From Minisyncoccota bacterium (GTDB taxonomy: Bacteria; Patescibacteriota; Microgenomatia; PFEM01; JAFGMK01), in NCBI GenBank assembly GCA_016927565.1, contig JAFGMK010000018.1, forward strand, positions 13,119 to 77,118: a stretch of 64,000 nucleotides of DNA, written 5' to 3'. Made by a program: the position numbers and the translations under genes. The notes beneath the pieces are model-generated. The model was not told where the DNA came from, did no database searches, and was given only the letters and a program-made list of their open reading frames with translations. This document shows positions 17,301-45,351 of this stretch, piece by piece (position 1 is the first letter of the stretch; every line of letters begins with the position of its first letter).

Positions 17301-18154
17301 ATTTCAGGCTCATCCTCCAACAGCTCGTCAAGCAGGTCGTTGAAATCGGGGGTGACGGTTACCGGGATTGGCTCATTATCACCGGCGCGGCCGTATTGAG
17401 CAATAGGGGCTTCTTCTTGCTGGGGTGACGGCCGGCTTGGCGGAGACAGAGGCGGGGTGAGGGGATGAGGAACAGTGGCTGCTGGTCTGGTTTTGGGCAG
17501 AGCAGCAGCTCTGGGCGGAGGAGGGTTGGGATTAAAATCTCGGGGAAAGGGTTTGCTTCTGACGGCATGGTCTCTCCGCCCTCCCAGATCAACATTGGCT
17601 AAGATAGTGAGTCGGCCGGGCCGGATTTCGGCGGGATTGCCGCGAGAGTCAGTGATTGGGCCTCCGTTGCTTTCCCGAATTAAAGCAAAAAGATTTTCCG
17701 GTTTTTCTTCAAGCGCCTGGGCCAGTCTTTCGGCTTCTTCTTGACTGGTTATCCAGACTGCCCGCAAAGCGTTGCTTCTGGCCCCACCGGTACCTTCATC
17801 AGGGCCTCTTTGGTCAATGTGATGACCGTGAACGGCTGCTAAAGTAATCACATCATTAGGACTGAATTTGCCTTTTAAATTTCCTTTTACTTTTGGGGGG
17901 ATGGCAGGACTGCTAAGAGGAACCTGAATAACACGGCTGTAGCCTTCCTGAGGAACATCATATCCGGGGAGAGTTAGCCGGACTTCGCTGTCAATAGGCG
18001 TGCTTTGAAGTAAATCGTAAACTTGATTATCGCCCCGGACCTGATAACCTCTGGGAGAATAATTTTCGATTGCCTGGCCTTTGATTGCAAATTTTTCTGC
18101 GTGACCAGTGGTGGATTCTGTATTAATGGCGGCCATTAGAAGTAATGATACCAA
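14351..18154 (-). CDS. Giant 1267-aa membrane protein with a C-terminal M23 (LytM) metallopeptidase domain; candidate T4SS cell-wall hydrolase
   Basis: The C-terminus carries FVNSTGNSEGNHLHYELRG and GGSHDPDGAYSNSIDIAAGEGTPVYA, which are M23 signatures. The central part has a block of 4-5 TM helices, and there are Pro-rich linkers. It sits directly downstream of VirB4. Confidence 0.7.
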   Translation of the reverse strand: MVSLLLMAAINTESTTGHAEKFAIKGQAIENYSPRGYQVRGDNQVYDLLQSTPIDSEVRLTLPGYDVPQEGYSRVIQVPLSSPAIPPKVKGNLKGKFSPNDVITLAAVHGHHIDQRGPDEGTGGARSNALRAVWITSQEEAERLAQALEEKPENLFALIRESNGGPITDSRGNPAEIRPGRLTILANVDLGGRRDHAVRSKPFPRDFNPNPPPPRAAALPKTRPAATVPHPLTPPLSPPSRPSPQQEEAPIAQYGRAGDNEPIPVTVTPDFNDLLDELLEDEPEIQEAIEEAKKRQRELHPFLAIIPGFDNSFETYARQKIKEAVLGSIRQNLPPGATREQAETALKEALKAYWVSIADKDREIEKMVAEMQTVIEPEIIGQELAPETQKKLDELPVDETGHYQPPPRRTPPAPARRRRPSPTPTRPEEPPAPAEPAPVSAEPAPVSEEANLFQFFFNRSPTPVRSQILKQLAPYLEKHPQYGPQHPLVILANGVRLEDIDETIIQLEAILRDVAPGNIDVNQGLIGQYRHLRNNLLKFEEEHPKIAEALRLAFDKERRRGFTKSRLEKIREKLGLPQLKLRLAEIKQKIKVPERLKKIWQGITSGLGKTLKIIGKGLGTPFKLAGAGLEKLILILNRSGIGRPFAWILTQGRQLFTTGARYVGQAGKFVGEYAGRASRALLRPFKKAYAWVQQSLKAARKAVKEKAAELAGKGAAWLAKKLGIKGSVNLAALALPTGVTQVLAIFGFYDMAVSLVEAIPVIGKPLGLLIDIAAGPIGMLRRGFKIFGGLITFRYFREGQKEGGLKGNLKQIFNILGLAGPLLMAAFFTLGPTALLIGAGLVIGSVVIIGSLSTIAATTAVLATTTTTLVTTGTTAFLAWLWQWQIRLNLRRIIALYLILISLSTFIVVLISGGAFMVTPQETPQGRFEEEIISSAYIDVVKTAVPGEVANPLQTKEPAIINYRIEIYAVENALTNITVSNETVIHNLNPDVQGEYQVVKDASGNQIRLWDSSNSELIPLILNPDEVIVLEYDVALVRSAIESQVGVEITDISQIHDSWLIDTVIATADVIIDPDDPEQNIIGESQSASARVKIGDPSEMIPTGWPTSGFITQGPRAVGGSHDPDGAYSNSIDIAAGEGTPVYATHNGTAYFYRDGGKGGTGGNWIKLCSSLGCDHFETRYVHLQKFATEFSDIDDGGNTSVSFCQLIGFVNSTGNSEGNHLHYELRGNPGLGVDILSYVPATSPPIEEKVYLPPYLDRINVSSSCP

Positions 18155-18189: not shown

Positions 18190-20151
18190 TTATTCCCGGA
18201 AATTACCGGTCAGAGAAGCTACTTCGGCTGGTGAAGCTGCGTTTTGGGGAGTGACGGTTTCTATCCGGAAGGCTGATTCATCCGGCGGCAGATTGGGAGT
18301 AAGGGTGATTTTGGCTTGAGCCTTGGCGGCTTCAATTTTTTTTCTTTTCTCCTCAGCCAGGCGGAGGAGTTCTTCCGGATTACTGGTAATTAAGTTGTGC
18401 TCTTCAGGAGAGGCAACGACACGGATAGCCACATGATTAGCTCCGGCAAAGAAAAGGCCCTCGCCGACATCAGCCGCCAAAAGGAGATGTCTTTCTCCTT
18501 CGGAAAGGTAAAAAACCTCAGCTAATTTGTCAATCGCGGCCGGCGATTGCTTCATCAGGATTTGAATGGAGGAATTAGTGACGATTTCCTTACCGTATTC
18601 GGTTGCAAAAAAGTCTTCAACATCCTGGGTGATGGTGGTTAATCCCAGGTAGTATTTCCGGGCTCTTTTGGCAATTGAACGCAGGAAATTAGCCGAATCG
18701 GGATAACGCATCATGTACCAGGCTTCGTCAACGACCATGATTCTTTTTTTCATCTCTTTTCTGACTCTGGTCCAGATATAGTCAAGAATAATAAACATCG
18801 CTACCGGCCGGAGAGTGTCTTCCAGATCTCTCAGGGAAAAAGCGGTGAAGGGATTGCTCAGGTCGACGTTCGAATGTTGATCAAAAATACCCCGGAATGA
18901 GCCTCTGACGAACTTTTCAATCCGGTCGGCTAAAGATCGGGCTTCGGCTTCTTCCATGCCGGTGAGAGCTTTATAGAGATCTTCCATTAGGGGAGGTTCG
19001 TTTTGTTGAGTTGCCGGATCGGGGGTGATGCCTTTCATTTTGTAGGTGAGAACCAGAGCGCGGTCAAGAGTGGCTTCCTCGGAAGGGGTCAGATGGCCCA
19101 TGACTACCTTAAAAAGCGAGTGAAGGGAAAGGATTTTTTGATTCAGCTCGTTTTCGCCTTCAGCATAAACGGCTGAAAGATCGAAGGGGTTAATTTTAGC
19201 TTGAGAGCCGAAGCCGAAACTAATGTATTGACCGTCAAGAGTTTCGCAGAGCGTTTTATATTCTGATTCAGGATCGATCACAATGACTTCTGCCCCGAAC
19301 ATTATCGAGCGGAGCGATTCCAGTTTGACCATGTAAGATTTCCCGGCCCCGCTTTTGGCAAAAACAACCGCATTGGCGTTTTCCATGGTAAAGCGGTCGA
19401 AAATTACCAGAGAGTCATTGTGTTCATTGATGCCGTAAAGAATGCCTTCGTTAGCTGTCAGTTCTGAAGAGGTAAAGGGAAAGGTGGTGGCGAGAGAGGT
19501 GGTGTCCATGTTGCGGCTGATCATCAATTTATCGGTGCAGATGGGGATGGTGGTTTTAAAACCTTCTTCCATTTGAAGGGTGGCGTGTTTGGAAATAATT
19601 AAAAGTGAGCCTAGGGTGGCCTCGATTTGTTTTGAAACCTGATTCAGTTCTTCTAAGGATTCAGCCGGGATGGTGACATATAGGGAAAACTGGAAAAAGC
19701 GCTCGGCGCCTTTGACTAATTCTGCCTGGAGTGACTGGGCGTCTTCCAGTTTTGCCTGAGTGCCGGGGTCGACTATCCGGCCTCTCTCGAGGTCGGTTTT
19801 AATCTCAGCTTCCATTTCGGCAATCTTTCTTCTTAATTTGTCCAGGATTGAACGTCCTTCGACCGGATAAACAAACATCGAAACATCAAGGGAATGGTCA
19901 AAGTTAATCAGAGGGGCCAGCCAGTTGGCGGAAACATAGCGGGGATAGCCGGAGACGAAAAGAGTTCTGAAATAGGTGGTGCCGATTTTGATGTGGTCAA
20001 AATCCACTTCAATGGCTGAGGGGGCGATGATGTCTTGGATGCTGACAATTCCCTGAGACAATTTGTCTTCAACCGAAGCCGCTGATAGCCCCTGATTTTT
20101 AACCGGAGCCGTTTTTTGTTTTTTCTTTTTGAACTTGTCTAAAAAGGTCAT
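18190..20151 (-). CDS. virB4: Type IV secretion ATPase, VirB4/TrbE/TraC family
   Basis: Walker A VVFAKSGAGKSYMV and Walker B IMVVDEAWYMM are present. The 653-aa size fits the family. Confidence 0.8.
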   Translation of the reverse strand: MTFLDKFKKKKQKTAPVKNQGLSAASVEDKLSQGIVSIQDIIAPSAIEVDFDHIKIGTTYFRTLFVSGYPRYVSANWLAPLINFDHSLDVSMFVYPVEGRSILDKLRRKIAEMEAEIKTDLERGRIVDPGTQAKLEDAQSLQAELVKGAERFFQFSLYVTIPAESLEELNQVSKQIEATLGSLLIISKHATLQMEEGFKTTIPICTDKLMISRNMDTTSLATTFPFTSSELTANEGILYGINEHNDSLVIFDRFTMENANAVVFAKSGAGKSYMVKLESLRSIMFGAEVIVIDPESEYKTLCETLDGQYISFGFGSQAKINPFDLSAVYAEGENELNQKILSLHSLFKVVMGHLTPSEEATLDRALVLTYKMKGITPDPATQQNEPPLMEDLYKALTGMEEAEARSLADRIEKFVRGSFRGIFDQHSNVDLSNPFTAFSLRDLEDTLRPVAMFIILDYIWTRVRKEMKKRIMVVDEAWYMMRYPDSANFLRSIAKRARKYYLGLTTITQDVEDFFATEYGKEIVTNSSIQILMKQSPAAIDKLAEVFYLSEGERHLLLAADVGEGLFFAGANHVAIRVVASPEEHNLITSNPEELLRLAEEKRKKIEAAKAQAKITLTPNLPPDESAFRIETVTPQNAASPAEVASLTGNFRE

Positions 20152-20177
20152 GGTTCTTCTTTTTTTATAGGCTGTTT

Positions 20178-21278
20178 CTAAGGAACAGGACTGGTTATTT
20201 CGGGCGGTTTTTCCTCCTGAGGCGCCACTGCTTTGACTAATTTATCGATTTCTGCCTGAGTACTTTCTTCTCCGGTTTCATTAACGGCTTCTTCTGCTCG
20301 GGGAAGAGTGGTGGTAGGAAATGTTTTCGCCGAGACCGGCCGGGAGGGAAGAGTTTGATCTTGAGATGAAGTTTCGATCTGAGGCGGTAGGGAATTTTTA
20401 GTTGAAACCGGTTTGATTGCCGGTGGATTTGGGGCCGAAGAAGAAGCGGGTGCCGGTGTTGGGATTGGCGGCGATGGTGGATTTGGGGCCGGCGGAGCCG
20501 GAGGAAGCGGGGATTCGGGTGTCTGGCCGGATTTTTCTGTCGGTTCGGCGGCGGTTTCAGCCGGAATGACAACCGGAGCCTGAATAAAATTAGCGGCAGG
20601 CTTAACTAAGGGCGTCTCATAATCGGCTGAGGTAGATAAAATCTGCCCGAAGCTGTTGGGATTGTAGATCTCATAAAAAAGCTTGATTAATTCCTGGTTG
20701 TTTAATTGCCTTGATCTTAAACCCAGGCGGTTTAATAGTCTGATGAGATGATCTCTTTTGGGGAATAAGTTGGTTTTGGCTTTGTTTAGGACATAGTCCT
20801 TGGGAAAGGGCAGGCCCCGCTTTTTTTTAAGCTTAGAGCCTAAGTTTTGGCTGATTCCCAGTTCCAAAGATGACATGGGGATAATGATATAAAAACTTTT
20901 TTCCAGGACATTGTTGACCTGGACGGTATTTTGAATAAATTCGTGGTATTTTTGAATTTGAGTCTTAAATTCTTTTTTGACGGTCCTTTTTTCCTGTTCG
21001 GTAATTAATTTCAGGTAGGCGGTGATGTCTTTTCTTTTTGACCGGATTAAAATCTGGATTGAGAAGGTGAGCGAGTTCAGAAGGGCGCCATAAGCATAAA
21101 TGGCGGCATCTTGTTCTTTCTCGGACAAAAGGCCAAAGTTAATCGCAGTGGTGGTAATGATTAAGATGCAGCTGCCGTCCTTGAGAATAACGATGCCTTC
21201 CTTAATGTCTTCAATTTCCAAAAAAGATTGGGTGCTGGCTTTGACTGGGGTGGTGCTGGCAGGTTTTCCTGATTTCAT
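20178..21278 (-). CDS. Hypothetical T4SS-associated protein with a Pro-rich C-terminal half
   Basis: The 366-aa ORF lies between the PrgI-like gene and virB4. A PAPPAPNPPSPPIPTPAP tract is present. Confidence 0.35.
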   Translation of the reverse strand: MKSGKPASTTPVKASTQSFLEIEDIKEGIVILKDGSCILIITTTAINFGLLSEKEQDAAIYAYGALLNSLTFSIQILIRSKRKDITAYLKLITEQEKRTVKKEFKTQIQKYHEFIQNTVQVNNVLEKSFYIIIPMSSLELGISQNLGSKLKKKRGLPFPKDYVLNKAKTNLFPKRDHLIRLLNRLGLRSRQLNNQELIKLFYEIYNPNSFGQILSTSADYETPLVKPAANFIQAPVVIPAETAAEPTEKSGQTPESPLPPAPPAPNPPSPPIPTPAPASSSAPNPPAIKPVSTKNSLPPQIETSSQDQTLPSRPVSAKTFPTTTLPRAEEAVNETGEESTQAEIDKLVKAVAPQEEKPPEITSPVP

Positions 21279-22318
21279 TTGGCTCTGATTTCAATGGGAG
21301 GAACAATTTCTCCGGTCAGATTTAACTTGATTATATCAAAAACCAACTCTTCTTTTTCAACCTCGATTTCATAAGTGCCGTTGCTTAAAGGAGTAACAAT
21401 CTGGAATTGGCCGAGGCGATTAGTTCTTAAAGCTCTGACGGGTAAACCCTCTCTGTCTCTGATTTCAATAATTGCATTCTCGACGATTTTGCCTTCCCGG
21501 TTTAAAACCATGCCGACGATAATGTTAGGCTGGGTGGAGGCGTTGGGAATGGGAAGTTCGGTTGAGGTTTTAGCCTGAACGCGGAGCTGGTCTTTTCTAG
21601 GTTTAGACGGCGAAATTTTTATCCGGGGTAATTTGACTGACTTCGGCTTCTTTTTTTCTTGGGTGGGAGGAGCCGGCAGGGAGGTTTTTTTAGCCGTTGG
21701 CGGGAAGCCGATTTTAATAACGGCTGCCTCTGAAGGCGGAGCCGATAATTTACGGGGTTTGATTTTGAGCTGGGGCATGAGCTGGTCGGTGATTTTTAGT
21801 CTTTTGGGTTCAGGAGTGATGGTTGGCGGCAGTTTGGTTGAGGCAAAAAGGTTGTTAATGGATGATAAGGCTGCGGTTTCTTCTTTTTCCGCCTCGGTTT
21901 CAGAAGCCGGGGGTGAAAGAGTATTGAGATATTTTAAAAGATTGGCCTGAGTCAGTTGAGTTGCCGGAGCAGTGGCGGTTTGGGAAATTGGCCGCAATCC
22001 CGGAGTATCTGCTAAAAAGGCAGGCAGTCTTTTTTCCTTTCGCCAGACAAACATCGTGGGGGTGTAAATTGAGTTGATAAAGGCCGTTAGCCATTGGTCC
22101 AGCGGCCGGTCTTCCAGAGGCAGAAATGCCAGAGCAAAACCAAGAAGTCCGAATAAAAGAACAAAAAACCATTTAAATAATCCCGGGATCGGGAGAACAT
22201 AGAAAAAAAGAGCCAGGACCAAGCCGCCGGCCAATTGAGAAAACTGGCGCAAAGTCATATCGCCGATCAGGCGAAATTGATAGGCTGATATCTGCTGAGG
22301 AATCGGGTGTTGTTCCAT
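21275..22318 (-). CDS. PrgI/VirB3-like membrane protein with a long C-terminal extension
   Basis: The N-terminus IPQQISAYQFRLIGDMTLRQFSQLAGGLVLALFFYVLPIP is followed by a second TM helix. It resembles the PrgI-family consensus (VPQ.I..EDKI.GPLT.KQF.YL.GG) as I remember it. Confidence 0.5.
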   Translation of the reverse strand: MEQHPIPQQISAYQFRLIGDMTLRQFSQLAGGLVLALFFYVLPIPGLFKWFFVLLFGLLGFALAFLPLEDRPLDQWLTAFINSIYTPTMFVWRKEKRLPAFLADTPGLRPISQTATAPATQLTQANLLKYLNTLSPPASETEAEKEETAALSSINNLFASTKLPPTITPEPKRLKITDQLMPQLKIKPRKLSAPPSEAAVIKIGFPPTAKKTSLPAPPTQEKKKPKSVKLPRIKISPSKPRKDQLRVQAKTSTELPIPNASTQPNIIVGMVLNREGKIVENAIIEIRDREGLPVRALRTNRLGQFQIVTPLSNGTYEIEVEKEELVFDIIKLNLTGEIVPPIEIRAK

Positions 22319-25752: not shown

Positions 25753-27420
25753 TTAGCCTCGGAAAAGCCCGCCGATTTGCTGGCCGATCCGCTGGGCGGC
25801 TTGAAGTTTTTTAAGTTTTGCAAATTCGGCTTCATAGGTTGATCCTGCAGGAACATTCCTGACTAATTGTTGCTGGATATCAGCGCGGTGGCCGAGGTAG
25901 CCTTGAGCTCCGCTAGAAATTGGACCAACTGCTTCTCCAATCGCCGTGTCACGGCCGCCCAGACCGGCTTTAAGCATTGATTGAGCCATTTCGGCAATTT
26001 TCGGGGCATAGAAAAACATCCCCAAGCCTAAAATTTGCAATGCGTGTTCTGGAGAAAACTCACCCATTAAAGGCAGGCGGATTTCATGAGCCCGGGCTTC
26101 GAGTCCGATCGGAATTTCGCCTCTGGCACCGCCCATAAAGATTGATGACAGGACAAAAAGAGTTCCGGTGACCGGAAAAGTCACCGCCTGAGCCATTACA
26201 TTTTTGAGCCAGCCGTTAAAGGCTTTAGAGCCCGGGAAAACATCCATGAAGATCCACAGCGGGGCAACAATGGTGTAAAGAACGAGGAAGATAAAAGCTT
26301 TAATGATCATCCAGGTGGTTTTAATTGCTGTCCAAAGCAAAATAGCGGCGAGAATAAACCAGCCGATTACCATTAAACCCTGCTCGGTTAAACCGGCCGG
26401 ACCGCCGAAAACCGCCTGGGCGGCATTAGCCAGACCAACAAAGGAAGCGATAAAGCTGTTCGGCAGGATCCTCCACATTGAGTAGCCAAAAGCACTGCGT
26501 TCCATCAGCCCCCGCCGGAAGCCGTCATAAGCCAGAGTATTGCGGAAATCGCCGACACTGGAAACGATTTCGTAGGCAAAGAGAGTTGAAAACCAGATCA
26601 GATCCATAATCAGACCGACAATAGCGTAAGAAAAAGTGACCAGAAGGAGAGTGATAATCATTTTAGGCAGGGCCTGCTGGATAGTGACTACGGTACGGGG
26701 GTCAAGTTTGGTTCTAAACATTATCATAAAACCAATAATGACGGCGGCGACGGCGAAAAGAGCATAGGCGGCATTTCTGAACACTGTCCACCAGGGGATT
26801 AGTCCGGCCATGGAGTTATAGCCGAAACCCTGAGCCTGAGCCGGTTGTGATAAGCCGACTTTTTGACCCAGCCAGCTGAAATACCGGAAGCCGGAAACCG
26901 GCATTTTTTGAGAAATAAGCCTGGTCATTGTCAGGGTTCTGGTCAGGATGCCGGATTCCAAACCGGCGATTGGCAGGGGCTCTTTATTTTCGACAAACCA
27001 AAGAGCGGCGTCGGCGCAATAGGGAACAACATTTAAACAATCGCCGAAATCAGCAATGTCACCGCTGAAAACTTTATGGCTGCAGAGGACGCCCCAATAA
27101 AGACAGTTAATCAGTTCTATCCGGGTGAGGTAGTAAATCGGAATTCCCAAAAAAAGAGCTTTAAAGGTTTCGGAAACAAAGCTTTCCAAATTCATTTCCG
27201 GCGATTCAAGAGCGGGGTGGAAAACATCGGCGTAGTATTCTAACAAACCGGTTTCAGTATCGCCGATTACGCCGAGGAAATTAATGGCTTTGAAAGGGGT
27301 GGAGTCGTAAGCAAGTGCCGGTTTGGCAGATAGAGGCAATAAAATGACCAGCAGAAGAAGCGCCAGTCCTCTTTTCAGCTTTGCCAATTTTTTCAGGATC
27401 ATATAGTTTAAGTTTAACAA
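25753..27420 (-). CDS. VirB6/TrbL-like polytopic T4SS channel protein
   Basis: A signal peptide is followed by an extracytoplasmic domain of about 200 aa and then 5-6 TM helices. It lies in the T4SS cluster. Confidence 0.5.
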   Translation of the reverse strand: MLNLNYMILKKLAKLKRGLALLLLVILLPLSAKPALAYDSTPFKAINFLGVIGDTETGLLEYYADVFHPALESPEMNLESFVSETFKALFLGIPIYYLTRIELINCLYWGVLCSHKVFSGDIADFGDCLNVVPYCADAALWFVENKEPLPIAGLESGILTRTLTMTRLISQKMPVSGFRYFSWLGQKVGLSQPAQAQGFGYNSMAGLIPWWTVFRNAAYALFAVAAVIIGFMIMFRTKLDPRTVVTIQQALPKMIITLLLVTFSYAIVGLIMDLIWFSTLFAYEIVSSVGDFRNTLAYDGFRRGLMERSAFGYSMWRILPNSFIASFVGLANAAQAVFGGPAGLTEQGLMVIGWFILAAILLWTAIKTTWMIIKAFIFLVLYTIVAPLWIFMDVFPGSKAFNGWLKNVMAQAVTFPVTGTLFVLSSIFMGGARGEIPIGLEARAHEIRLPLMGEFSPEHALQILGLGMFFYAPKIAEMAQSMLKAGLGGRDTAIGEAVGPISSGAQGYLGHRADIQQQLVRNVPAGSTYEAEFAKLKKLQAAQRIGQQIGGLFRG

Positions 27421-27443: not shown

Positions 27444-30400
27444 TCAAAACTTAACCATTTCTTTGGGTACCATTTCATTCATGAAGTATTTCCGGAAAAC
27501 ATCAACCGCGCCGATATAGGGATAGTAAAATCTGGCCTGAGTATCGTTGATGCTTTCCCAGCCTCTAAAATCCCGGCCGAGAGAGTCTTTAGTCGGCGGT
27601 TCCCCTCCGGGGGCATTTTCGCCGCAGCCGTCGCTGTGGCAAATTCTTTCGCTGTCTTCGCAATCCGGATCATTGAGGCATTCGTCGCAGTTGCAATTGG
27701 CTTCGCAGTTGGGGGCCGGGTTGCCGCCGCATGGAGTGCCGCAGCTGTCTGTTCCCGCGCAGTAGTCAATGCAGCGATTTTCTTCGCAGACACATTCAGT
27801 GCCGGCGCATTCCCGCCGCACAATGAAAAAACCTGCCGTTCCGCCGCAATTAAAAGAATCATAAACATCGCTGGCCATGCACATCGGGTTGTTGTCCCAA
27901 CTGAAATTTCCGAGAGGACAGAAGTTAAGCTCGTTTATATCCGGTTCGAGGCCGCATTCCCGATCCTCAAAAGCTTCGCAACAGCCCCAGTGGGTTTGGG
28001 GGTTTTCTTCTCTTTCGAGATTATTGTCGTATTCGTAACTGGCGGGGCCGTAGCCTGGCAGTTCATACCAGAGCAACCGGCCCCCGGCGACTTCTTTGAT
28101 TAAACCGATGATGTTCTCAGTATAGAATTGAGGTAACATCAGCCGGAAAAGGCCGGCGGGGCCAATCGTTCTTTTGGCAATTTCCCTCAGATAGGGGATT
28201 TTGGTGGTGATCCAGGCATGAGGCCATTCAGGAGTTTCCCAGGTGTTGCGGGAAAAGACGCTGGTGTGGCGTTCGGGGAAGACGCAGGAAGGTTCAGAAT
28301 CACAGCCCCAGTCGCCGGCACCAGCTTCTACTTCATCATACCATTCGTTGTAAAATTCAATGCCCCGATCAGTGTACCCCGGCGCATCTCCGGCGATAAC
28401 ATCATTGGCCAGGGCATTGCCGGGTCCGCCGCGTACTACGCTGTTGACATTGCAATTTAAAAATTGAGAAAAAGGATTGTCCAGGGCCAGGGTGGTCATT
28501 GAGCCGTCGTTTCCCCAATACTCTTCCGAGTCGCGGTTTTGATAAACGAAGGGAGTCAGGGGCATTGCCGCCCATTCCGAAAGCTCTTTAGATTCCGGAA
28601 TATGGGGAATATAGATCATCTGAACATAGTGGAGCTCATAAAGAGGCTCGCCGCTGATTTCAGAAGCGACTCTTTCCGGCGGATTGCCCAGCCAGAGCTC
28701 AAGCCAGTAGTAGCCGTCGTGGTTGTTAACGGCGTCGTAAAGATAATCAATCGGAAGGGAAGAGGGAACGGTAATTTCCCGGAGGCGAGAGGTGTAATTT
28801 TCGCCGGGAATGTCGATATTAGCCGGGTCGGGCCAGATGCTGGTTACTCCCAGATCGACAAAAGCGGGGGCGTCCTCTTTTGAAGCCAGAGGAAAATAGT
28901 GGAGCCAGGCGGTCTTTTGGTCACCGGTCAGCGGCAGGGAAATGCCGCTGGGCAAGTCGGACAAAGTGATATCTTTGTAGAGGTGATAATCGTGAACCGG
29001 ATCATTGGAAATCAGCCGGCTATAGTTATTCTTTAGAATCTGGTCCTGCCAGCCCGGTTCGCAGACCCGGTCCGAGCTGTTTCCCATTCGGCATCGGATA
29101 AACTGCCTCCTATAGGCATTATCCCGCAGGATGGGATCGGGAAACAGTTTTCTGATCGGTCCGCTTTCATTTTGAATCCGGCGGTATTCTTTTTCCTGGT
29201 CTTCGAAATCAGCGTTCCGGTTATCCTTAACTTCTTCACCGTCAAAATAAACCGTTCCCCGTAAGAAATCGCTTAGGAAAAAGGACATTCTTTCCGTATA
29301 ATCTGCAAATTGGCGGGAGGCAGTTTCGCTGTTCCCCAAAAATGGAATTTGGGTGGCGCGGACGCTGTCGATCCATTGAGTTTTGATCTCGCCGAGCAAT
29401 TCGAAGTAGTGAGTTAAACCGTTTGGCTCATCCGGAAGGGGGAACCAATCCAGATTATCAGTGATCTCAGGTGCCGGGTTGCAGTAAACGGTAATTTGAT
29501 TATCATTGTCAAGTTTAGTCAGGTCGTAGCAATTGGCCGCACCCCGGCGGGCATCGGCATCGCCCGGAAAAGGACGCCAGGGGGATCGGTCGTTATAGAG
29601 ATCGCCCAAGCTTTTTCTGCAAGGAATTCCTTCGCCATAGACCGGCGGTCGGGCCCATTCGGTATTGCGTTTCGGGGGTAATTCAATTGGTCCCATTGAG
29701 CCTCTCTCGCTTTCGCTAACCAGTTCACAACCATCGGTTAATTCTTCGTTGTTGAAGGTGTAGAAGCGAATGTCGCTCAAATTTGGAGCAGAGGCCGACC
29801 AGCCGAAGGTGGCGCCGGTACACATGTCTAAGGGAAGAGGGGTGACGGCAATAAAACCGTCTGCTTGGAAATATTTGCTTCCGTGTTGGATCAGATCAAC
29901 ATAGAAACTGTAATAATTGCTTGGGGGGAGAGAGGGATTGGGGCCGTATTCGGTAAGGATTCTTGGTTTATTAGTGTTGATGCCAAAACTATTCATCACT
30001 CCGATTTCCCAACGCCAAGAACGCCTCCCAAAAGGGTCCTCGGCACAATCAGGTCCGCAATTGGGGTTGTCATAAGCGACAAAGGCAAGAACTTGCAGGC
30101 TGTTTAAAACCGCTAAGCCGTCAGGAGCGTCAGCAGCATACTGCCAGAATCGATCAGCACTGCCGCAGTGGGTGCAGAGGGGAGCATTAGCGGCCCGGAA
30201 GTTGCCTTGACGGGTAGTGAATTCTTTTAAAAGCCTGATGTAGTCGGCGGTAACTTTTCGGAAACTAGCTTCATCTTTGTCAATATGGGTTCCTCCCCAT
30301 TCGTCATAAACATTAGGTTCATTGAGGACGCTGATAATTGGGATCCAACCGTCAGGAAAACTGACATTAGCCTCAGCAATACCGGCAGAAAGGCCTGTAG

Positions 30401-30758
30401 CGGCAGCAACAGCCTCTTCTTGAGTCATAATTGCCCAGTGTCCGCTTTGAGTGCGGGTGACGAGCCTGATGATAGGTAAAAAATGGAGGCTGTGAAGATC
30501 GTGGATTAAGCTGGCAACATGATCCGGGTCAGCCGCGCGATCGACACCGACCATAAGAGTGACCGGGACCCAATCGGCTCCCAAGTTGTTGGATCGTTCT
30601 CGGACAGTTTGAAAAAATCCCCGATCGCTATTATTAATCAGGTGAGTTCCAAGCATTTGCCGGGATTCGCCATAAACGTGATTGGGGAAAACCCCGCTGA
30701 GAATTAAGCCGGAAAGAACTAAAAAGCTCCTCACAAGCCAAGTTTTGATGAGTTTCAT
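27444..30758 (-). CDS. Secreted roughly 1100-aa protein with a GH clan-A (GH5-like) TIM-barrel glycoside hydrolase signature and a Cys-rich C-terminal region
   Basis: The likely start is ATG 30758 (MKLIKTWLVRSFLVLSGLILSGV, a signal peptide). IISVLNEPNV is an NEP acid/base motif, and RILTEYGPN is a TE(Y)G nucleophile motif. The C-terminal roughly 150 aa contain about 30 Cys in CxxC, CxC and CNC patterns. Confidence 0.45.
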   Translation of the reverse strand: MKLIKTWLVRSFLVLSGLILSGVFPNHVYGESRQMLGTHLINNSDRGFFQTVRERSNNLGADWVPVTLMVGVDRAADPDHVASLIHDLHSLHFLPIIRLVTRTQSGHWAIMTQEEAVAAATGLSAGIAEANVSFPDGWIPIISVLNEPNVYDEWGGTHIDKDEASFRKVTADYIRLLKEFTTRQGNFRAANAPLCTHCGSADRFWQYAADAPDGLAVLNSLQVLAFVAYDNPNCGPDCAEDPFGRRSWRWEIGVMNSFGINTNKPRILTEYGPNPSLPPSNYYSFYVDLIQHGSKYFQADGFIAVTPLPLDMCTGATFGWSASAPNLSDIRFYTFNNEELTDGCELVSESERGSMGPIELPPKRNTEWARPPVYGEGIPCRKSLGDLYNDRSPWRPFPGDADARRGAANCYDLTKLDNDNQITVYCNPAPEITDNLDWFPLPDEPNGLTHYFELLGEIKTQWIDSVRATQIPFLGNSETASRQFADYTERMSFFLSDFLRGTVYFDGEEVKDNRNADFEDQEKEYRRIQNESGPIRKLFPDPILRDNAYRRQFIRCRMGNSSDRVCEPGWQDQILKNNYSRLISNDPVHDYHLYKDITLSDLPSGISLPLTGDQKTAWLHYFPLASKEDAPAFVDLGVTSIWPDPANIDIPGENYTSRLREITVPSSLPIDYLYDAVNNHDGYYWLELWLGNPPERVASEISGEPLYELHYVQMIYIPHIPESKELSEWAAMPLTPFVYQNRDSEEYWGNDGSMTTLALDNPFSQFLNCNVNSVVRGGPGNALANDVIAGDAPGYTDRGIEFYNEWYDEVEAGAGDWGCDSEPSCVFPERHTSVFSRNTWETPEWPHAWITTKIPYLREIAKRTIGPAGLFRLMLPQFYTENIIGLIKEVAGGRLLWYELPGYGPASYEYDNNLEREENPQTHWGCCEAFEDRECGLEPDINELNFCPLGNFSWDNNPMCMASDVYDSFNCGGTAGFFIVRRECAGTECVCEENRCIDYCAGTDSCGTPCGGNPAPNCEANCNCDECLNDPDCEDSERICHSDGCGENAPGGEPPTKDSLGRDFRGWESINDTQARFYYPYIGAVDVFRKYFMNEMVPKEMVKF

Positions 30759-30954: not shown

Positions 30955-31365
30955 TTAGTTAGTAGGTTCGGGAAGGGTAAAGATGGTGACATTGAGGCCG
31001 GTGATCAGCTTGATGGCCTGTAAAATGAGCCAAGCGGCCAGAATAACGGCTAAGCCAATCACTGCGTAAGTTAGGGTTCCGCTCGCTTTTTGAGCCTGTT
31101 TGGGGTCTTCGCCGGCAGTTAAATACTGAAAACCGCCGATTACAAACATTACTAAAACCCCCATTCCGGCCAGGGTGGTGACAACCATCACTACCCGTCG
31201 GAAAACAAACTCCAAGTCATAAATCTGAGCCGGTTGATCAGTTTGGGACCAGCCGGAGACCGGAGAGAGTTCCAAAAACAAGGTTAAAACAAAAAAAGAC
31301 CCCCAGAAGAATAATTGATTTAAAGTTTTTTTTAATTTCATTAGTTTTTTAAACCGACTCTCCAA
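30955..31365 (-). CDS. T4SS pilin-like protein (CPR T4SS_pilin/VirB2-like), paralogue 6
   Basis: A signal/TM segment is followed by FQYLTAGEDPKQAQKASG and a second TM helix (two hydrophobic helices with a divergent GEDP form of the GGDK motif). Confidence 0.6.
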   Translation of the reverse strand: MESRFKKLMKLKKTLNQLFFWGSFFVLTLFLELSPVSGWSQTDQPAQIYDLEFVFRRVVMVVTTLAGMGVLVMFVIGGFQYLTAGEDPKQAQKASGTLTYAVIGLAVILAAWLILQAIKLITGLNVTIFTLPEPTN

Positions 31366-31366
31366 G

Positions 31367-31407
31367 TTATCTCCCGTTCTTTCCGCTGGGGGGAGAACGG
31401 GAGATAA
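31367..31407 (-). terminator. Intergenic stem-loop with a 14-bp perfect stem between pilin paralogues 5 and 6; candidate attenuator or terminator
   Basis: gttatctcccgttct-(13 nt)-agaacgggagataat. A hairpin after the first pilin gene is common in pilin operons. The downstream U-tract is weak. Confidence 0.35.
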
Positions 31408-31422
31408 TCTTGGATTTGCCGC

Positions 31423-31839
31423 TTAGCTGGCAACACTCAGGTCGCTCAGGTTAAGCTGAAGCAGACTGACACCAAAGAACATCTGAATCAATTGGATAAT
31501 TGCCCAAGAACCAAAGACAATTAAAAGACCAACCAGGGCGGCAGTGATGGTGTTACGGGCGGCTTCGGTTTTGCCCTTGTCGCCACCAGAGGTGATCCAC
31601 TGGATACCGCCGTAGATCAAAAAGCCAAAAGCGATCATAGCGGCAATGACCAGTGCCAGAACAATCAAACTCCTGATCATTCGGGGAAGGCTGATGTTGC
31701 CTAAACTGGCGAATTGGTCACTTGGTGAAATGTTAAACGTCAAGTCATCGGCCAATACAGGGCTAGCGGCCGTAATCAACGGCAGAGCTGCCAAAGCCAG
31801 AACCCCGGCTGTTTTAATCAGTTTTTTCATATTTTTCAC
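31423..31839 (-). CDS. T4SS pilin-like protein, paralogue 5
   Basis: A signal peptide is followed by IQWITSGGDKGKTEAARNTITAALVGLLIVF. Confidence 0.65.
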   Translation of the reverse strand: MKNMKKLIKTAGVLALAALPLITAASPVLADDLTFNISPSDQFASLGNISLPRMIRSLIVLALVIAAMIAFGFLIYGGIQWITSGGDKGKTEAARNTITAALVGLLIVFGSWAIIQLIQMFFGVSLLQLNLSDLSVAS

Positions 31840-31941
31840 CCCCCTTCAAATTCTCAAAAAAAGACTTTATTATTTAATTTTTAAAAAAAAAGATTGCTAA
31901 GTCAACCCGGTCAGCCCGATTTCATCTAGAAAACCGGTTTT

Positions 31942-32301
31942 TTAGGAACTGACCGTCGGTAGTTTAATCTGAATTAGATTAATTCCAAATATTGCTCCGA
32001 TTGCTTTTATTATAGCAAAAAGGGAGAAGAGAATAAAGAGTCCGAGAAGCGCCTGGGCAATCTTGTCTTTGGCCTGCGCCAGCAGGGCTTTGTCACCGCC
32101 GGCGCTCATCCAGTGATAAGTACCCATTACCAGATAGAGGAAAGCGGATAAAAAGCCGATAATTAATAGGGTTGTAACGGTAATTGAAATAATTTTTCCT
32201 AAAATTTCAACCCCGTCACCGCTGCCCAGAACCGGCAGGGCTTCGTTGACAATTCCTTGAGCTAAAACAGCTGAACTAATCAAAAAGGTTAAGAGCCCCA
32301 T
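31942..32301 (-). CDS. T4SS pilin-like protein, paralogue 4
   Basis: YHWMSAGGDKALLAQAKDKIAQALLGLFILF flanked by two TM helices. Confidence 0.65.
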   Translation of the reverse strand: MGLLTFLISSAVLAQGIVNEALPVLGSGDGVEILGKIISITVTTLLIIGFLSAFLYLVMGTYHWMSAGGDKALLAQAKDKIAQALLGLFILFSLFAIIKAIGAIFGINLIQIKLPTVSS

Positions 32302-32657
32302 ATGTCTCCCAATAGGCTGCCGGGCTGAAGGATGGAAAAGCCCAAAACAAAGCCTAAGACTGAAATAATGGCGTAGGCGGCCACCAGGACAACCAGGCCG
32401 ATAACGGCTTGAACAATTTTATCTCGGGCTTTCTGGAGTTTATTTTTATCGCCGCCGGCTTCGATCCATTGGAAAGCGGCAGTGATAAAAATAAATAGGA
32501 AATAGATGCCTCCGCCAATTGTCATAATCCCGATTATTACTGAGATTACTTTTTCCAAAAGGGAAAGGGGTTCGGCCGGGTTAATGTTGGTATACATCGG
32601 GCCGACGCCGACAAAGTTGCCCAGACTGACCGAACTGGCATGCACTTTTCCGATCAT
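32289..32657 (-). CDS. T4SS pilin-like protein, paralogue 3
   Basis: FQWIEAGGDKNKLQKARDKIVQAVIGLVVLV flanked by two TM helices. Confidence 0.65.
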   Translation of the reverse strand: MIGKVHASSVSLGNFVGVGPMYTNINPAEPLSLLEKVISVIIGIMTIGGGIYFLFIFITAAFQWIEAGGDKNKLQKARDKIVQAVIGLVVLVAAYAIISVLGFVLGFSILQPGSLLGDIWGS

Positions 32658-32681
32658 ATTTTTTAAAGAAATTAATTTTGA

Positions 32682-33056
32682 TTAGTTAGGTGTATAAATT
32701 TTCGGATTGATAATCGCGGTCGGATCATTAAAGATAAGCCAGCCCAAGATAGCCGCCAGAGCCAGGGAACCGGCAACTACCGCTACTCCTAAAAGTGATT
32801 GCCAAATTTTGTTCCAGGCCTGGACAACTTTGTCCATATTGCCGTCGGCATTAAGAAAGCCGTAGCCGGCAGTGATAACATTGAAAAGAGCCCAGATACC
32901 GCTGAAGACAATGATGGTTCTTAAAAGGTTGTTAGCCAGGATAATAAGACCCTGGCCTTCAGTGCTGGGGTAAGAATCGGGGCTGATTGTTGCCCAGGGA
33001 TCGCTGATAGAACCGAAAACAGTCAGCATTCTAAAAAATAGGATTAAGAATATCAA
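32682..33056 (-). CDS. T4SS pilin-like protein, paralogue 2 (divergent motif)
   Basis: Two TM helices flank NADGNMDKVVQAWNKIWQSLLG. Confidence 0.5.
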   Translation of the reverse strand: MIFLILFFRMLTVFGSISDPWATISPDSYPSTEGQGLIILANNLLRTIIVFSGIWALFNVITAGYGFLNADGNMDKVVQAWNKIWQSLLGVAVVAGSLALAAILGWLIFNDPTAIINPKIYTPN

Positions 33057-33357
33057 TGCCGGTAATGGCGCCGATAATCTGAATTATCCAATAAGAACTA
33101 ATAATAATCAAAAAACCTACGATGGCAACGGTAACCATTCCTTTATTTTTGGCAAAACCTTCTTTTTCACCTTTGCCTGCGTTCATGATAATCCCAAACC
33201 CGCCAGCGATCAAGAGGAAGAAAAAGATAACCCCGGCGAGAATATAAATGTTGGGCAGCATTACTTGAATTAGGTGACCGAAGGAAGTAAAAACCGGCGG
33301 ATTAAGGTCCGGTTCAAAGATATCGACGCCGCCGCCGGCGAAAACAGGTTTAATCAT
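33031..33357 (-). CDS. T4SS pilin-like protein, paralogue 1 (divergent motif)
   Basis: Two TM helices flank NAGKGEKEGFAKNKGMVTVAIVGFLII. Confidence 0.5.
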   Translation of the reverse strand: MIKPVFAGGGVDIFEPDLNPPVFTSFGHLIQVMLPNIYILAGVIFFFLLIAGGFGIIMNAGKGEKEGFAKNKGMVTVAIVGFLIIISSYWIIQIIGAITGIDILNPIF

Positions 33358-33459
33358 GATTATAATTTTAACTGAAAGGAAGTTTGTTTTGCAAATTAGG
33401 AGGGGTTGTTGGCCGAAAATCTTGTTCTTTTTATTCTGGTCGATCAGACAGCTCCCTCC

Positions 33460-33494
33460 GGTCCCGGATCGAAATCCGCAGACGGTCCGGGATC
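33460..33494. repeat. Palindromic element GGTCCCGGATCG-N11-CGGTCCGGGATC, copy 2 of 3
   Basis: The arms differ from copy 1 at two symmetric positions, so that G-U pairs replace A-U. The loop AAATCCGCAGA resembles the copy 3 loop. Confidence 0.55.
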
Positions 33495-33512
33495 ATTATC
33501 TTTGTTAAAGGC

Positions 33513-34646
33513 ATGAGTAATTACGGAGTCGGATGTTTAGAAAGAGGATTTAAAAAAAATCGTGTTATACTAGCAGGCACTGTGGATGTAAAAAAATACT
33601 TGGCTTCTTATCGGGAAAGGGCTGGTCGGTTTATCGATTCCTTCTTTGAGGTTGAGGCAGAAAAAGCAGCTCTGGTTTCACCTTTTTGCGCCGAGTTAAT
33701 GAGAATCTATCAGAAGTTTGCCAAGGGGGGGAAGATGGCTCGAGGGGCGTTGGTGTGTTTAGGGTACCAATCGATTGGCGGAAAGGATCATTCAGCGATT
33801 TTAGCCCCCTCAATAGCCGTCCAGCTAATTCATTCTTTTTTATTAATCCACGATGACTGGATTGATGGAGATTTAAAGCGCTATGGCCAACCGACGGTTT
33901 ATAAACAGATTGAGAAGATTTATGGAGAACGCTTTAAAAAGGGTGATCGTCAGCGCTGGTCCGGAGGATCGGCTTTTGTTCTGGGAGACATTGGTTGCTT
34001 TTTGGCCCATAAGTTGATAGCAGATTCAGATTTTCCTGCTCGGGCAAAGGTGAGGGCGATTTCTTTCTTGTCGCAGAATCTGGTTCAGACTGGTCATGGG
34101 GAAATTTGGGACATTACCTATGATTTAGTGACTGGTTTTTCCTGGGATGAAATAGTCAAAATCCGGAAACTAAAAACTGCTTACTACACTTTGGTGATGC
34201 CGCTTCAGGTAGGGACTTGTTTGGCTGGCGGGAGTCAGGCGGAGCTTAAGGCGGCCGAAGAATACGGTTTTCCGGTGGGGATTGCTTTCCAGTTGCGGGA
34301 TGACTATCTGGGCCTGTTCGGGGATGAGGTGAAAACCGGCAAATCGGCCAGTTCGGATTTACGGGAAGGAAAAAAGACTTTAATAATTGCCAAGGCGCTT
34401 GAGATTTTAAAAGGGAAGGAAAAAAAGATTTTGAAGCAAGCTTTGGGAAATAGAGAATTGACTGGGGAACAAATTAACCAAGTAAGATTAATTATCAAAG
34501 CCTCAGGAGCGGTAGACGATTGCCAGAACCTGGCTCAAGAGCTAATTGAAAAGGGTAAAAAAGCGATTCCAAAACTAACGAGTGATAAGAGCCTGCAGGA
34601 AATTTATGCCAGTCTGGCGGACTATTTAGTCAATCGGGAGAAATAA
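33513..34646 (+). CDS. Polyprenyl diphosphate synthase (trans-isoprenyl diphosphate synthase family)
   Basis: The first Asp-rich motif LLIHDDWIDGD and the second FQLRDDYLG are present. The start was moved to ATG 33513 because the upstream in-frame extension overlaps the palindromic repeat. Confidence 0.8.
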   Translation: MSNYGVGCLERGFKKNRVILAGTVDVKKYLASYRERAGRFIDSFFEVEAEKAALVSPFCAELMRIYQKFAKGGKMARGALVCLGYQSIGGKDHSAILAPSIAVQLIHSFLLIHDDWIDGDLKRYGQPTVYKQIEKIYGERFKKGDRQRWSGGSAFVLGDIGCFLAHKLIADSDFPARAKVRAISFLSQNLVQTGHGEIWDITYDLVTGFSWDEIVKIRKLKTAYYTLVMPLQVGTCLAGGSQAELKAAEEYGFPVGIAFQLRDDYLGLFGDEVKTGKSASSDLREGKKTLIIAKALEILKGKEKKILKQALGNRELTGEQINQVRLIIKASGAVDDCQNLAQELIEKGKKAIPKLTSDKSLQEIYASLADYLVNREK

Positions 34647-34684
34647 AAAGATAACTCAGTTTCTTTAACAATCCAGGATTATCC

Positions 34685-34720
34685 GATCCCGGAAGGGAAA
34701 TCTGCAGACGATTCGGGATC
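34685..34720. repeat. Degenerate copy 3 of the GATCCCGG palindromic element
   Basis: GATCCCGGAAGG-GAAATCTGCAGA-CGATTCGGGATC, with the conserved flank TCCGATCCCGGA shared with copy 1. Confidence 0.4.
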
Positions 34721-34853
34721 GGGGAGAACTAATTACAAAGCAAACAGCCCAGGGGTGTTTGCAGAATTAATGCTAATCACTCCTGCAAGGTGGCACCCTG
34801 CCATCGGCGGGGATAACTTCTTGAAGTGTGTGATGGTTAGGAGGGATTGAAGA

Positions 34854-38221: not shown

Positions 38222-38839
38222 TTAAAGAGATTCTGGAACTCCGGAAATGGTTTTGATGATTTGGTAAAGCCAGTAAGAAGCAATAACGATGGCGAAGCCA
38301 ATGACGGCGTTGGTTAAAATCTTTTGGCCGGCCGCGGCCGATTTGGGATCGCCGCTGGAGGTCAAAAGCTGGAAACCGCCCTTGATGATAAAGACCAAAA
38401 GAATCAGGCCGGCGGCAACGAACAGATAGGGTAAGATTTGACCAATTACGCCACCCAGGCTCTCATTGGCAAAGGTAAAGCCGGGGGTTTTGAGGAAATC
38501 AGGCAAGTCATCGTAGTCCGGCAACCCCGAACCTATCGGAGAGCCAAGTGTTGGAGTCGGGAGAACTGGAGTGGGAGTAGGATCGCTGGCTAGCTGGCAG
38601 ATACCGCGCGGGTTGGTATCCCAACAAACTTCAACGCCGACCTCGCAGGAAATGGGACCACTGCTTCCTGGAGTTATGGTGTAGCAGTCGTTTTGACTGG
38701 GTCGGTAATACCAGTTTTCCGGACAGCAGAATCCGCCGACGGTGGCTTGAGCCTGCGGCTTGGTTAAAAGAGTAATCAATGGAAAAATAACCAAAAGCAA
38801 AAAGATTATTTTTGCGAAGAAGAAGAATTTCTTTTTCAT
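38222..38839 (-). CDS. Pilin-domain fusion: signal peptide, Cys-rich ectodomain, then a C-terminal T4SS-pilin-like module
   Basis: The C-terminus ILPYLFVAAGLILLVFIIKGGFQLLTSSGDPKSAAAGQKILTNAVIGFAIVIASYWLYQII aligns with the pilin paralogues at 30955-33357. The N-terminal 110 aa contain 7 Cys. Confidence 0.55.
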   Translation of the reverse strand: MKKKFFFFAKIIFLLLVIFPLITLLTKPQAQATVGGFCCPENWYYRPSQNDCYTITPGSSGPISCEVGVEVCWDTNPRGICQLASDPTPTPVLPTPTLGSPIGSGLPDYDDLPDFLKTPGFTFANESLGGVIGQILPYLFVAAGLILLVFIIKGGFQLLTSSGDPKSAAAGQKILTNAVIGFAIVIASYWLYQIIKTISGVPESL

Positions 38840-38860: not shown

Positions 38861-39619
38861 TTAATCCAATCCCGGTATCTGCAATATGTTGACGCCGATG
38901 AGCCTTAAAATGAAGATGGCAAAGATGATTAACAGGAGTCCGCTGATGGCGGCGGTTAAAAGCTCTCTGCCGGCCTGGACCCGCTCAGGTTTGCCGGAAG
39001 CAGTCAAAATCATAAAGCCGGCAATGACCATAAGAATAAAGGCAACTCCACCGGCAATGGCCATGGCGCGACCGATGAGCCAGGGACTAAACTGGTCAGC
39101 TCTGGTCGGAATGCAACCCAAGGCGGTCTTGGTTCCGGTAAGCTCGCCATTAATGAGACATTGAACATCGGGTAATTTTCTGGCTTGGCATTCACAACCA
39201 ATGCAGTTTACGGTATCAATGATGACCGGCCGGGTGTCTTCGGGACAGCGGCCGACCTCGTCGTTTTGGATGGGAACACAGCCGAAAAAGGTTTTGTTAG
39301 TTCCGCAGCCGCCGCCTTCGGGAGTGCGGGTCGGAGTGGGCTTAGGAACAGCACAGGCGCCGGCATTGTCAGGGGTCTGTTCACAAATTTCCCCGGGGTC
39401 GCAATTAATGGGTTGTGAAGTTCCCGGAGTTCGACCAATGCAGCGGCCGGAGCTAGGAGAATAATAATACTCGGACGCGATATCACAACAAGGGTCACCA
39501 GGAGCGGCTTGAGCCTGAGATTTTATAACTGAACCCATCAGTGGGAGGAGAATTAAGAGCCAAACAGCGGTTTTCGTTAAAAACGAAACAATCCTTTTCA
39601 TATGCTTTAATTTTAACAT
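38861..39619 (-). CDS. Pilin-domain fusion: signal peptide, Cys-rich ectodomain (about 14 Cys), then a C-terminal T4SS-pilin-like module
   Basis: The C-terminus LIGRAMAIAGGVAFILMVIAGFMILTASGKPERVQAGRELLTAAISGLLLIIFAIFILRLI matches the pilin module. Confidence 0.55.
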   Translation of the reverse strand: MLKLKHMKRIVSFLTKTAVWLLILLPLMGSVIKSQAQAAPGDPCCDIASEYYYSPSSGRCIGRTPGTSQPINCDPGEICEQTPDNAGACAVPKPTPTRTPEGGGCGTNKTFFGCVPIQNDEVGRCPEDTRPVIIDTVNCIGCECQARKLPDVQCLINGELTGTKTALGCIPTRADQFSPWLIGRAMAIAGGVAFILMVIAGFMILTASGKPERVQAGRELLTAAISGLLLIIFAIFILRLIGVNILQIPGLD

Positions 39620-44920: not shown

Positions 44921-44955
44921 TTTCAGGGTCTTGATTTGGTAGAATGCTTCTCATT

Positions 44956-45343: not shown

Positions 45344-45351
45344 AAGAAAAA

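Follow-up and report, generated by a model that had tools for sequence, protein, structure and literature searches.

A conserved, position-specific set of six T4SS_pilin paralogues beside an origin-proximal type IV secretion system of a Minisyncoccota bacterium, with one probable major subunit

The closest described relatives of the locus reported here are the pilin arrays of the Patescibacteria, a phylum name synonymous with Minisyncoccota. A recent survey identified 441 such arrays of 2-11 genes, with a mean identity among array members of 25% and a maximum of 54%, and suggested that they serve host-adaptive variation (Quinonero-Coronel et al. 2025, PMC12102498). The same work described a monoderm-type (MPF-FATA-related) type IV secretion system (T4SS) with TrsD, PrgI and VirB2-like pilins, often located near dnaA and usually without a relaxase. 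Apart from the T4SS of the Patescibacteria with its pilin series, no system of this type has been shown to be indispensable for epibiotic growth; transposon insertion sequencing of Southlakia epibionticum marked the pilin series as essential (Wang et al. 2023, PMC10633639), and a 2025 review lists six sequence-divergent VirB2-like pilins in that species (PMC12857230). The present study concerns six genes, named g1 to g6 in the order of transcription (33357 to 30955, minus strand), in a 64,000-nucleotide stretch of contig JAFGMK010000018.1 (hereafter the window) from a Minisyncoccota bacterium of Microgenomates-type lineage. We propose that they form an ancient, fixed set of T4SS_pilin paralogues belonging to an origin-proximal monoderm T4SS, in which g5 probably provides the major subunit and the other genes minor ones.

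In the published survey an array was defined as at least two pilin genes, in tandem or one non-pilin gene apart, near a virB4 of the Patescibacteria clade (PMC12102498). The window contains six adjacent genes at a distance of about 11 kb from a gene for a CD1110-type VirB4, with PrgI-like and TrsD-like genes in between, and the identity of 20-30% in their alignment is as low as that of the published arrays. Relaxases and coupling proteins are absent in most Patescibacteria (PMC12102498), and the window agrees, as no relaxase or VirD4-type coupling protein domain was detected in any open reading frame (ORF) of at least 150 amino acids within its 64 kb. With the arrays of that survey, and with those of S. 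epibionticum ML1 and TM7x (the 'Sec-secreted array'), the locus thus shares the PF18895 family, the phylum, the tandem arrangement, an identity near 25%, the position beside monoderm-type VirB4, TrsD and PrgI genes near dnaA and the absence of relaxase and coupling protein genes from the vicinity. It differs in that the lineage of the window has not been described individually, and in that a fixed slot order and a single slot with strong expression signals have not been examined in published work. Pilins were detected in the survey by an i-Evalue below 0.001 for PF18895 or PF04956; these thresholds would count only g3, g5 and g6, because g1 and g2 have no match and g4 scores below threshold.

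The initial annotation of this stretch had described six small consecutive ORFs at 30955-33357, and these are present at exactly those positions on the minus strand, encoding 108-138 amino acids. Comparison with orthologues shifted the starts of g2, g5 and g6 to ATG codons at 33029, 31830 and 31341, respectively. The resulting genes are g1 (33031..33357; 108 amino acids), g2 (32682..33029 within ORF 33056-32682; 115 amino acids from the orthologue-supported ATG), g3 (32289..32657; 122 amino acids), g4 (31942..32301; 119 amino acids), g5 (31423..31830 within ORF 31839-31423; 135 amino acids from its likely ATG) and g6 (30955..31341 within ORF 31365-30955; 128 amino acids from its likely ATG). 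The first four are packed or overlapping, with a single nucleotide between the stop of g1 and the start of g2 and an overlap of 13 nucleotides between the end of g3 and the start of g4; only then does an AT-rich spacer of 111 nucleotides (31831..31941, minus strand) precede g5. A stem-loop on the same strand occupies the g5/g6 junction (31361..31414; 14-bp core plus 6-bp outer stem). The g5 product is 100% identical to JW991_03610, a hypothetical protein of a Candidatus Pacebacteria metagenome-assembled genome.

Hydropathy and transmembrane analysis revealed in all six proteins a pair of strongly hydrophobic helices with a short, charged, lysine-rich loop between them. The order of signal or first transmembrane (TM) segment, loop and second TM segment initially assigned to all six therefore holds for the helices and the loop; a signal-peptide-like hydrophobic N-terminus is confined to g5 and g6 and, weakly, g4, and g1 to g3 begin with a short polar, acidic tail that lacks such a segment. 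For g5 the predicted order is a classical Sec-type signal peptide (MKKLIKTAGVLALAALPLITAASPVLA/DD), TM1, loop and TM2. The loop core (Q/H)W(I/M)x(S/A)GGDK was found in exact form in three proteins (g3, QWIEAGGDK; g4, HWMSAGGDK; g5, QWITSGGDK, continuing as QWITSGGDKGK), not in the central four as had been stated, and its spacing is W-x2-(S/A)GGDK rather than the x3 first proposed. Variant cores are present in g6 (QYLTAGEDPK), g2 (GFLNADGNMDK) and g1 (IIMNAGKGEK, within the loop NAGKGEKEG). The most divergent paralogue, g2, carries the signature AGY.F.(S/N)A(D/G).N..K..AW.KIWQ. Identities are 20-30% in the six-way alignment (to g1) and 20-40% in BLAST comparisons between paralogues, and the N- and C-terminal tails outside the hairpin are the most variable regions.

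Membership in the T4SS_pilin family was assessed with PF18895, whose gathering cut-off is 26.6 bits (whole-protein score). Scores above it were obtained for g6 (47.4 bits), g5 (33.2 bits) and g3 (26.9 bits); g4 reached 17.5 bits, below the cut-off, and g1 and g2 had no Pfam match at all, either to PF18895 or to PF04956. One profile was then built for each gene position from about 70 related loci, and the profiles were compared pairwise by hhalign. All 15 pairs were found to be homologous, with probabilities of 97.2-99.9% and E-values of 5e-11 to 7e-34 (slot 1 versus slot 5, 99.7%, E 9e-26; slot 4 versus slot 5, 99.9%), and an independent alignment of the g2 family matched the g5 family at 97.1% (E 5.8e-11) across both helices and the loop. 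The homology among the six goes far beyond chance, and g1 and g2 join the family because of this profile-profile comparison (97-99.7%), which is their sole link to it. AlphaFold2 (AF2) models g5 as two helices (48-80 and 85-119), with a predicted local distance difference test (pLDDT) score above 90 in the hairpin (48-119) and a mean of 79.6, and g2 as helices 26-60 and 65-100 with a pLDDT of about 87. A predicted helical-hairpin fold and T4SS_pilin similarity, on which the initial annotation had staked its proposal, were thus both obtained. The family is very large, the g5 profile matching 49,733 representatives at 50% identity (E <=1e-3); for g2, 1629 relatives were identified, and only 16 of the best 120 carry a precomputed PF18895 match.

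The age of the set emerges from the comparison with other genomes. Three related contigs (L001, L002 and L003), which together with the window represent four close genomes, possess the same six-gene block, flanked by the same divergent pair of a polyprenyl synthase and an extracytoplasmic function (ECF) sigma factor gene and by the same large downstream genes. Each gene was found to match the same slot of these contigs at 84-182 bits and 38-69% identity, versus only 16-76 bits for other slots; g1, for example, scored 112-115 bits against its orthologues versus 32-55 bits against paralogues, and the orthologue scores of g3 and g6 were 134-137 and 105-113 bits. The least conserved slot is that of g4 (84-104 bits, 38-45% identity), and the most conserved is that of g5, with 59-69% identity to its orthologues and a mean pairwise identity of 0.50 across loci. 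Hidden Markov models of the slots were run on 79 loci of species-level genomes, drawn from 504 matching stretches. The order 1-2-3-(4 or 5-like)-5-6 was found in 59 of the 66 arrays uncut by contig ends, 37 of which read exactly 1-2-3-4-5-6, and every slot carries its own conserved signature. No DNA-level repeats were detected between the six genes, which speaks against recent duplication or gene conversion. On this sequence evidence the six are ancient, fixed, position-specific orthologous groups and not a recent expansion.

The slot that has been duplicated in other lineages is slot 5. Two or three recent copies with 67-100% identity were observed in L026 (5998-7411), L047, L073, L045, L027, L075 and L032; L026 holds three (100% and 83% identity), and the copy in L047 has 79% identity. 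These duplicates often occupy the slot-4 position and represent a true lineage-specific amplification that is absent from the window.

The signals for expression are distributed very unequally within the array. The only strong Shine-Dalgarno sequence is that of g5 (GAAGGGGGGTGA), located in the 111-nucleotide spacer, which also holds a promoter-like TTGACT-17-AAAAAT (31905-31877). When the upstream sequences of all six genes were compared in the four close genomes, g5 was again the sole gene with a strong Shine-Dalgarno, GAAAGG(G/A)GGTGA, and across the wider set of loci such a sequence precedes 29% of slot-5 genes versus 1-4% in other slots. Just upstream of g1 lies a promoter-like TTGCAA-18-TAAAAT (window 33357-33394), whose -10 element lies only a few bases before the ATG, and g1 has no Shine-Dalgarno. 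Translation of this first gene of the array may thus start on a message with no leader or almost none.

Because of the slot orthology and order, together with a Shine-Dalgarno, spacer and hairpin found for g5 alone, the array is best read as encoding one major pilin and dedicated minor ones rather than interchangeable variants. The gene proposed for the major subunit is g5, since it combines a separate promoter-like spacer with the only strong Shine-Dalgarno, a classical signal peptide, the highest conservation and the downstream hairpin, and since slot 5 is the one duplicated elsewhere. According to the positive-inside rule, the lysine-rich loop would face the cytoplasm and both termini of each hairpin the outside, and the Sec-type signal peptides of g5 and g6 would be cleavable. 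By analogy with VirB2 pili, the loop would line the lumen once a filament is assembled. The g5 product would be the abundant polymerising subunit, and g1 to g4, g6 and two further pilin-domain proteins of the window (pX and pY, described below) would act at low copy number, to initiate, cap or decorate the structure assembled by the VirB4/TrsD/PrgI machine.

Several observations weigh against this proposal. The literature consulted reports no T4SS pilus on any Patescibacterium. Slot 2 comes close to slot 5 in conservation, with a mean pairwise identity of 0.49 versus 0.50. In the wider clade a strong Shine-Dalgarno and a hairpin accompany only about 20-30% of slot-5 genes and are thus lineage-variable, and the hairpin of the window is followed by no U-tract on the coding strand and so is not a canonical terminator. 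A relation to established pilus formers was likewise not demonstrable: hhalign against Agrobacterium-type VirB2 (33 sequences) gave 0.33% for the g5 family and 0.38% for the g2 family, in an alignment so narrow (effective number of sequences, Neff, about 3) that remote homology could escape it; the g5 family against PrgF of pCF10 (NC_006827) gave 0.32%; and Foldseek against the PDB returned only non-specific helical hairpins at E >1, which any hairpin would match equally well.

Specific homology to VirB2/TraA pilins, with which the initial annotation had proposed a comparison, was accordingly not demonstrated. A search of the six proteins with PF04956 returned only g3 (E = 0.24, 12 bits), and the g5 family profile had no sequence match among PDB chains at E up to 10. 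VirB2, TrbC and TraA (PF04956; T-pilus 8EXH, F-pilus) nevertheless share with the window proteins a small size, a leader, two hydrophobic helices, a short charged loop and a location beside virB3 and virB4; a further expected likeness would be assembly from a membrane pool into a filament whose lumen is lined by the loop. In contrast to them, the window proteins have no detectable sequence homology to this family, belong to a monoderm and comprise six to eight paralogues instead of one, and VirB5 is missing. The nearest curated relatives outside Pfam are the pilin-like conjugal transfer proteins of Mycoplasma integrative and conjugative elements (NF045849, Mbov_0395 family). With this model g6 (30.1 bits), g3 (24.6), g5 (21.8), pY (19.6) and g2 (13.9) all score below the cut-off of 40, with E-values from 2.8e-7 (g6) to 0.03 (g3, 1.5e-5), and so are related yet outside the equivalog. 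These sub-threshold matches hint at an origin of the pilin together with the monoderm T4SS and not in a diderm system. PrgF_B2 of pCF10 is a small two-TM protein reported as a VirB2-like pilus former of a Gram-positive T4SS (bioRxiv 10.64898/2025.12.18.695078); it matches only Maff2, weakly, and not PF18895. Both the Mbov_0395 family and PrgF_B2 resemble the window proteins as small two-TM hairpins beside CD1110- or Mbov_0397-type VirB4, but they are single-copy, conjugative and accompanied by a relaxase and a type IV coupling protein; the window proteins score 14-30 bits against the former and have no significant similarity to the latter.

The lack of significant similarity to any solved pilin would also fit proteins that stay in the membrane as small integral subunits of the T4SS translocon or of an envelope conduit across the wall, perhaps as a hetero-oligomeric ring of hairpins, with no extended pilus. 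The thin envelope of a monoderm cell agrees with such an arrangement, as do the proteins with 3-6 fused hairpins encoded in other Patescibacteria arrays, given that joined hairpins suit a ring or layer better than a freely polymerising filament. This is the strongest of the competing explanations but an unlikely one, since two helices with a charged loop, a signal peptide and adjacency to VirB4 are exactly the features of VirB2-like proteins, since PrgF from a monoderm T4SS, likewise small and with two TM helices, acts as a pilus former, and since signals for very high expression on one subunit suit a polymer better than a fixed ring.

The hairpin downstream of g5 had been noted at the outset as a perfect 14-bp element at 31367-31407 that could set stoichiometry. 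The structure itself was confirmed: its arms (31367-31380 and 31394-31407) are 14 nucleotides long and 100% complementary, enclose a loop of 13 nucleotides and extend to about 31361-31414, and the RNA of the coding strand folds at -39.8 kcal/mol (z = -7.3), a stability reached by 0 of 200 shuffled sequences. Comparison lends support to the idea on stoichiometry. Downstream of g5 and of its orthologues in L001, L002 and L003 lie hairpins of -30 to -40 kcal/mol with unrelated stem sequences, and hairpins of -22 kcal/mol or stronger were found after 17 of 84 slot-5 genes versus 15 of 392 other pilin genes (slot 6, 0/73; Fisher p = 2e-6). Many of these hairpins across loci are canonical terminators with U-tracts. 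For the lineage of the window, the combination of a strong Shine-Dalgarno and a hairpin after slot 5 is firm; in the wider clade it is enriched and non-universal. The stem-loop would end or stabilise the g5 message, so that less g6 is made, and because the hairpin of the window lacks a U-tract, termination is no likelier than processing or stabilisation. The missing U-tract, and the frequent absence of a hairpin at this junction in the wider clade, could alternatively mean that the structure has nothing to do with pilin dosage and arose as a palindrome by chance, binds a protein, serves recombination or is left over from a mobile repeat. We consider this improbable, since independent and differing hairpins occupy the same junction in the three relatives and the junction is significantly enriched in strong hairpins and terminators. 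The sequence is moreover unique within the window, which argues against a repeated element.

Diversification of the exposed surface has also been proposed for the VirB2 paralogues of Bartonella and Anaplasma. Like the window, T4SS loci of Bartonella, Anaplasma and Rickettsia contain several tandem virB2-like genes; these differ in belonging to PF04956 and to diderm pathogens and are thought to be antigenically variable, whereas the paralogues of the window are ancient and slot-specific. An analogous role here, namely that the six are interchangeable variants of the major pilin, expanded in tandem for antigenic or host-range diversification as initially suggested, is the least probable of the explanations considered: the low identity of 20-30% within the array, similar to the published average of 25% (PMC12102498), the variable tails outside the hairpin and the recent slot-5 duplicates of some related lineages would fit it, but position-specific orthologues in the same order in dozens of species-level genomes are the opposite of rapid birth-and-death or gene conversion, DNA-level repeats are absent, strong translation signals are restricted to one gene, and the packed or overlapping g1 to g4 resemble a co-translated set.

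The pilin genes of the window extend beyond the array, since two additional genes encode PF18895-type domains. Of these, pX (38861..39619, minus strand; 252 amino acids) has a signal peptide, a larger Cys-rich N-terminal domain, a Pro/Thr linker and a C-terminal hairpin that matches PF18895 at 21.2 bits, below the cut-off (residues 185-241). The second, pY (38222..38839, minus strand; 205 amino acids), has a signal peptide followed by a Cys-rich N-terminal domain, a Pro/Thr linker and a C-terminal hairpin scoring 34.3 bits (residues 125-188). The motif CCxxxxYYxxPSxxxC is common to both Cys-rich domains. In most relatives an equivalent pair lies directly upstream of slot 1; in the window about 5 kb of genes on the opposite strand intervene. 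The two proteins may be domain-displaying minor pilins.

A bolder version of the major/minor proposal, which we advance only tentatively and regard as doubtful, is a heteromeric T4SS filament composed of a slot-5 major subunit, five dedicated minor subunits and the two Cys-rich-domain proteins, in which the minor subunits take the VirB5-like role in initiation, as a tip or as an adhesin. To date no such division of labour has been reported for pili of the VirB2 type. A purely functional analogy is offered by type IV pili and type II secretion systems, in that one abundant subunit is co-encoded with conserved low-abundance paralogues, the minor ones priming or tipping the fibre; their fold and assembly machinery are unrelated. 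With five minor subunits the count would fit a single five-fold layer of a conjugative-type pilus, although the pX/pY pair weakens it.

Single polypeptides of 500-790 amino acids with five or six tandem pilin hairpins each (P0365, P0367, P0390 and P0408) were also observed. Poly-pilin ORFs of this kind lie within pilin arrays on other Patescibacteria metagenome contigs, at 1777-3435 of L084 and 76-1743 of L085, and translate as stated; proteins with 2-4 pilin hairpins exist too. We know of no earlier description of such fused 'poly-pilins'. By analogy, the fusion of up to six hairpins in other lineages may point to hairpins that work side by side.

The genes for the secretion machinery lie beyond the array. 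The array adjoins a T4SS, whose PrgI-like, TrsD-like, VirB4 and M23 genes are on the same strand. The VirB4-like ATPase (18190..20151, minus strand; 653 amino acids) belongs to the CD1110 family of monoderm, MPF-FATA-type systems (NF045971, 399.6 bits, cut-off 325; PF19044, 102 bits). Adjacent to it are a TrsD-like protein of 366 amino acids (20178..21278, minus strand; NF041427, E 4.9e-5), which resembles the N-terminal part of VirB4 (VirB4_plasma positions 101-236, E 1.6e-8), and a PrgI-family, VirB3-like protein (21275..22318, minus strand), whose PF12666 score of 26.6 bits is just below the cut-off of 27 (E 8.8e-6). With these three, markers of the MPF-FATA (monoderm) type are present. VirB4 is effectively split (18190-21278), the 366-residue TrsD-like protein being followed by a 653-residue ATPase that aligns from about position 178 of the 752-position model. 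A protein of 1267 amino acids (14351..18154, minus strand) with five TM helices and a C-terminal M23 peptidase domain (PF01551, 51 bits) would be the cell-wall hydrolase of the system, in a VirB1-like role.

Between the PrgI-like gene and the array are three genes whose products have no Pfam, NCBIfam or PDB match and which are kept adjacent to the array in all close relatives. Directly downstream of g6, a large secreted protein of about 1104 amino acids from ATG 30758 (27444..30758, minus strand) is a candidate pilus-associated adhesin or hydrolase; it carries a signal peptide, and its C-terminal 250 residues include 20 Cys. The second is a protein of 555 amino acids (25753..27420, minus strand) with a signal peptide and five TM helices, syntenic in L001-L003. 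VirB6 has been reported to be scarce in Microgenomatia, where sequence searches fail to find it, and this polytopic protein is a candidate for a divergent VirB6-like platform. The third is a soluble protein of 839 amino acids (23055-25574, plus strand), encoded beside a DOT1-like methyltransferase (22401-22985). On the other side of the array, divergent from g1, are the polyprenyl synthase and ECF-type sigma factor genes (33384-35426, plus strand) that adjoin the array in L001-L003 as well; the pilin operon could be under the control of this sigma factor.

The neighbourhood of the replication origin comprises a jag/KhpB-like gene (7036-7515), yidC (7512-8309), dnaA (10394-11752) and dnaN (12082-13221). 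The T4SS cluster is placed at the origin because dnaA and dnaN adjoin it, the T4SS beginning immediately after dnaN, and because the GC skew changes sign near 12 kb. Further away, smpB, a tmRNA (44956-45343, 167.5 bits) and a cluster of Ser and Arg tRNAs lie within 44429-46515 and 51624-52865, and these housekeeping genes confirm the chromosomal context. A tRNA-Asn (57952-58027) abuts the gene of a large serine recombinase (57998-59497, minus strand), after which the GC content falls to 0.34-0.36 up to the end of the window (64000). This low-GC stretch holds an IstB/DnaC-like ATPase, a phage RepO-like protein and an N6/N4 DNA methylase, and 57952-64000 is probably an integrated mobile element or prophage.

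Arrays of this kind are already known and ordinary for the phylum, and the present one is nothing new in kind. What it adds is modest and, judged from the genes, consists of a conserved slot order, slot-specific signatures and the single slot with strong expression signals. For annotation, about one third of the array members escape the current Pfam profile, and surveys may under-count Microgenomates-type arrays, slots 1 and 2 being those that escape the model. Patescibacteria depend on host bacteria, and for their many pilin paralogues this study turns a vague hypothesis of 'variation' into a testable model of major and minor subunits.

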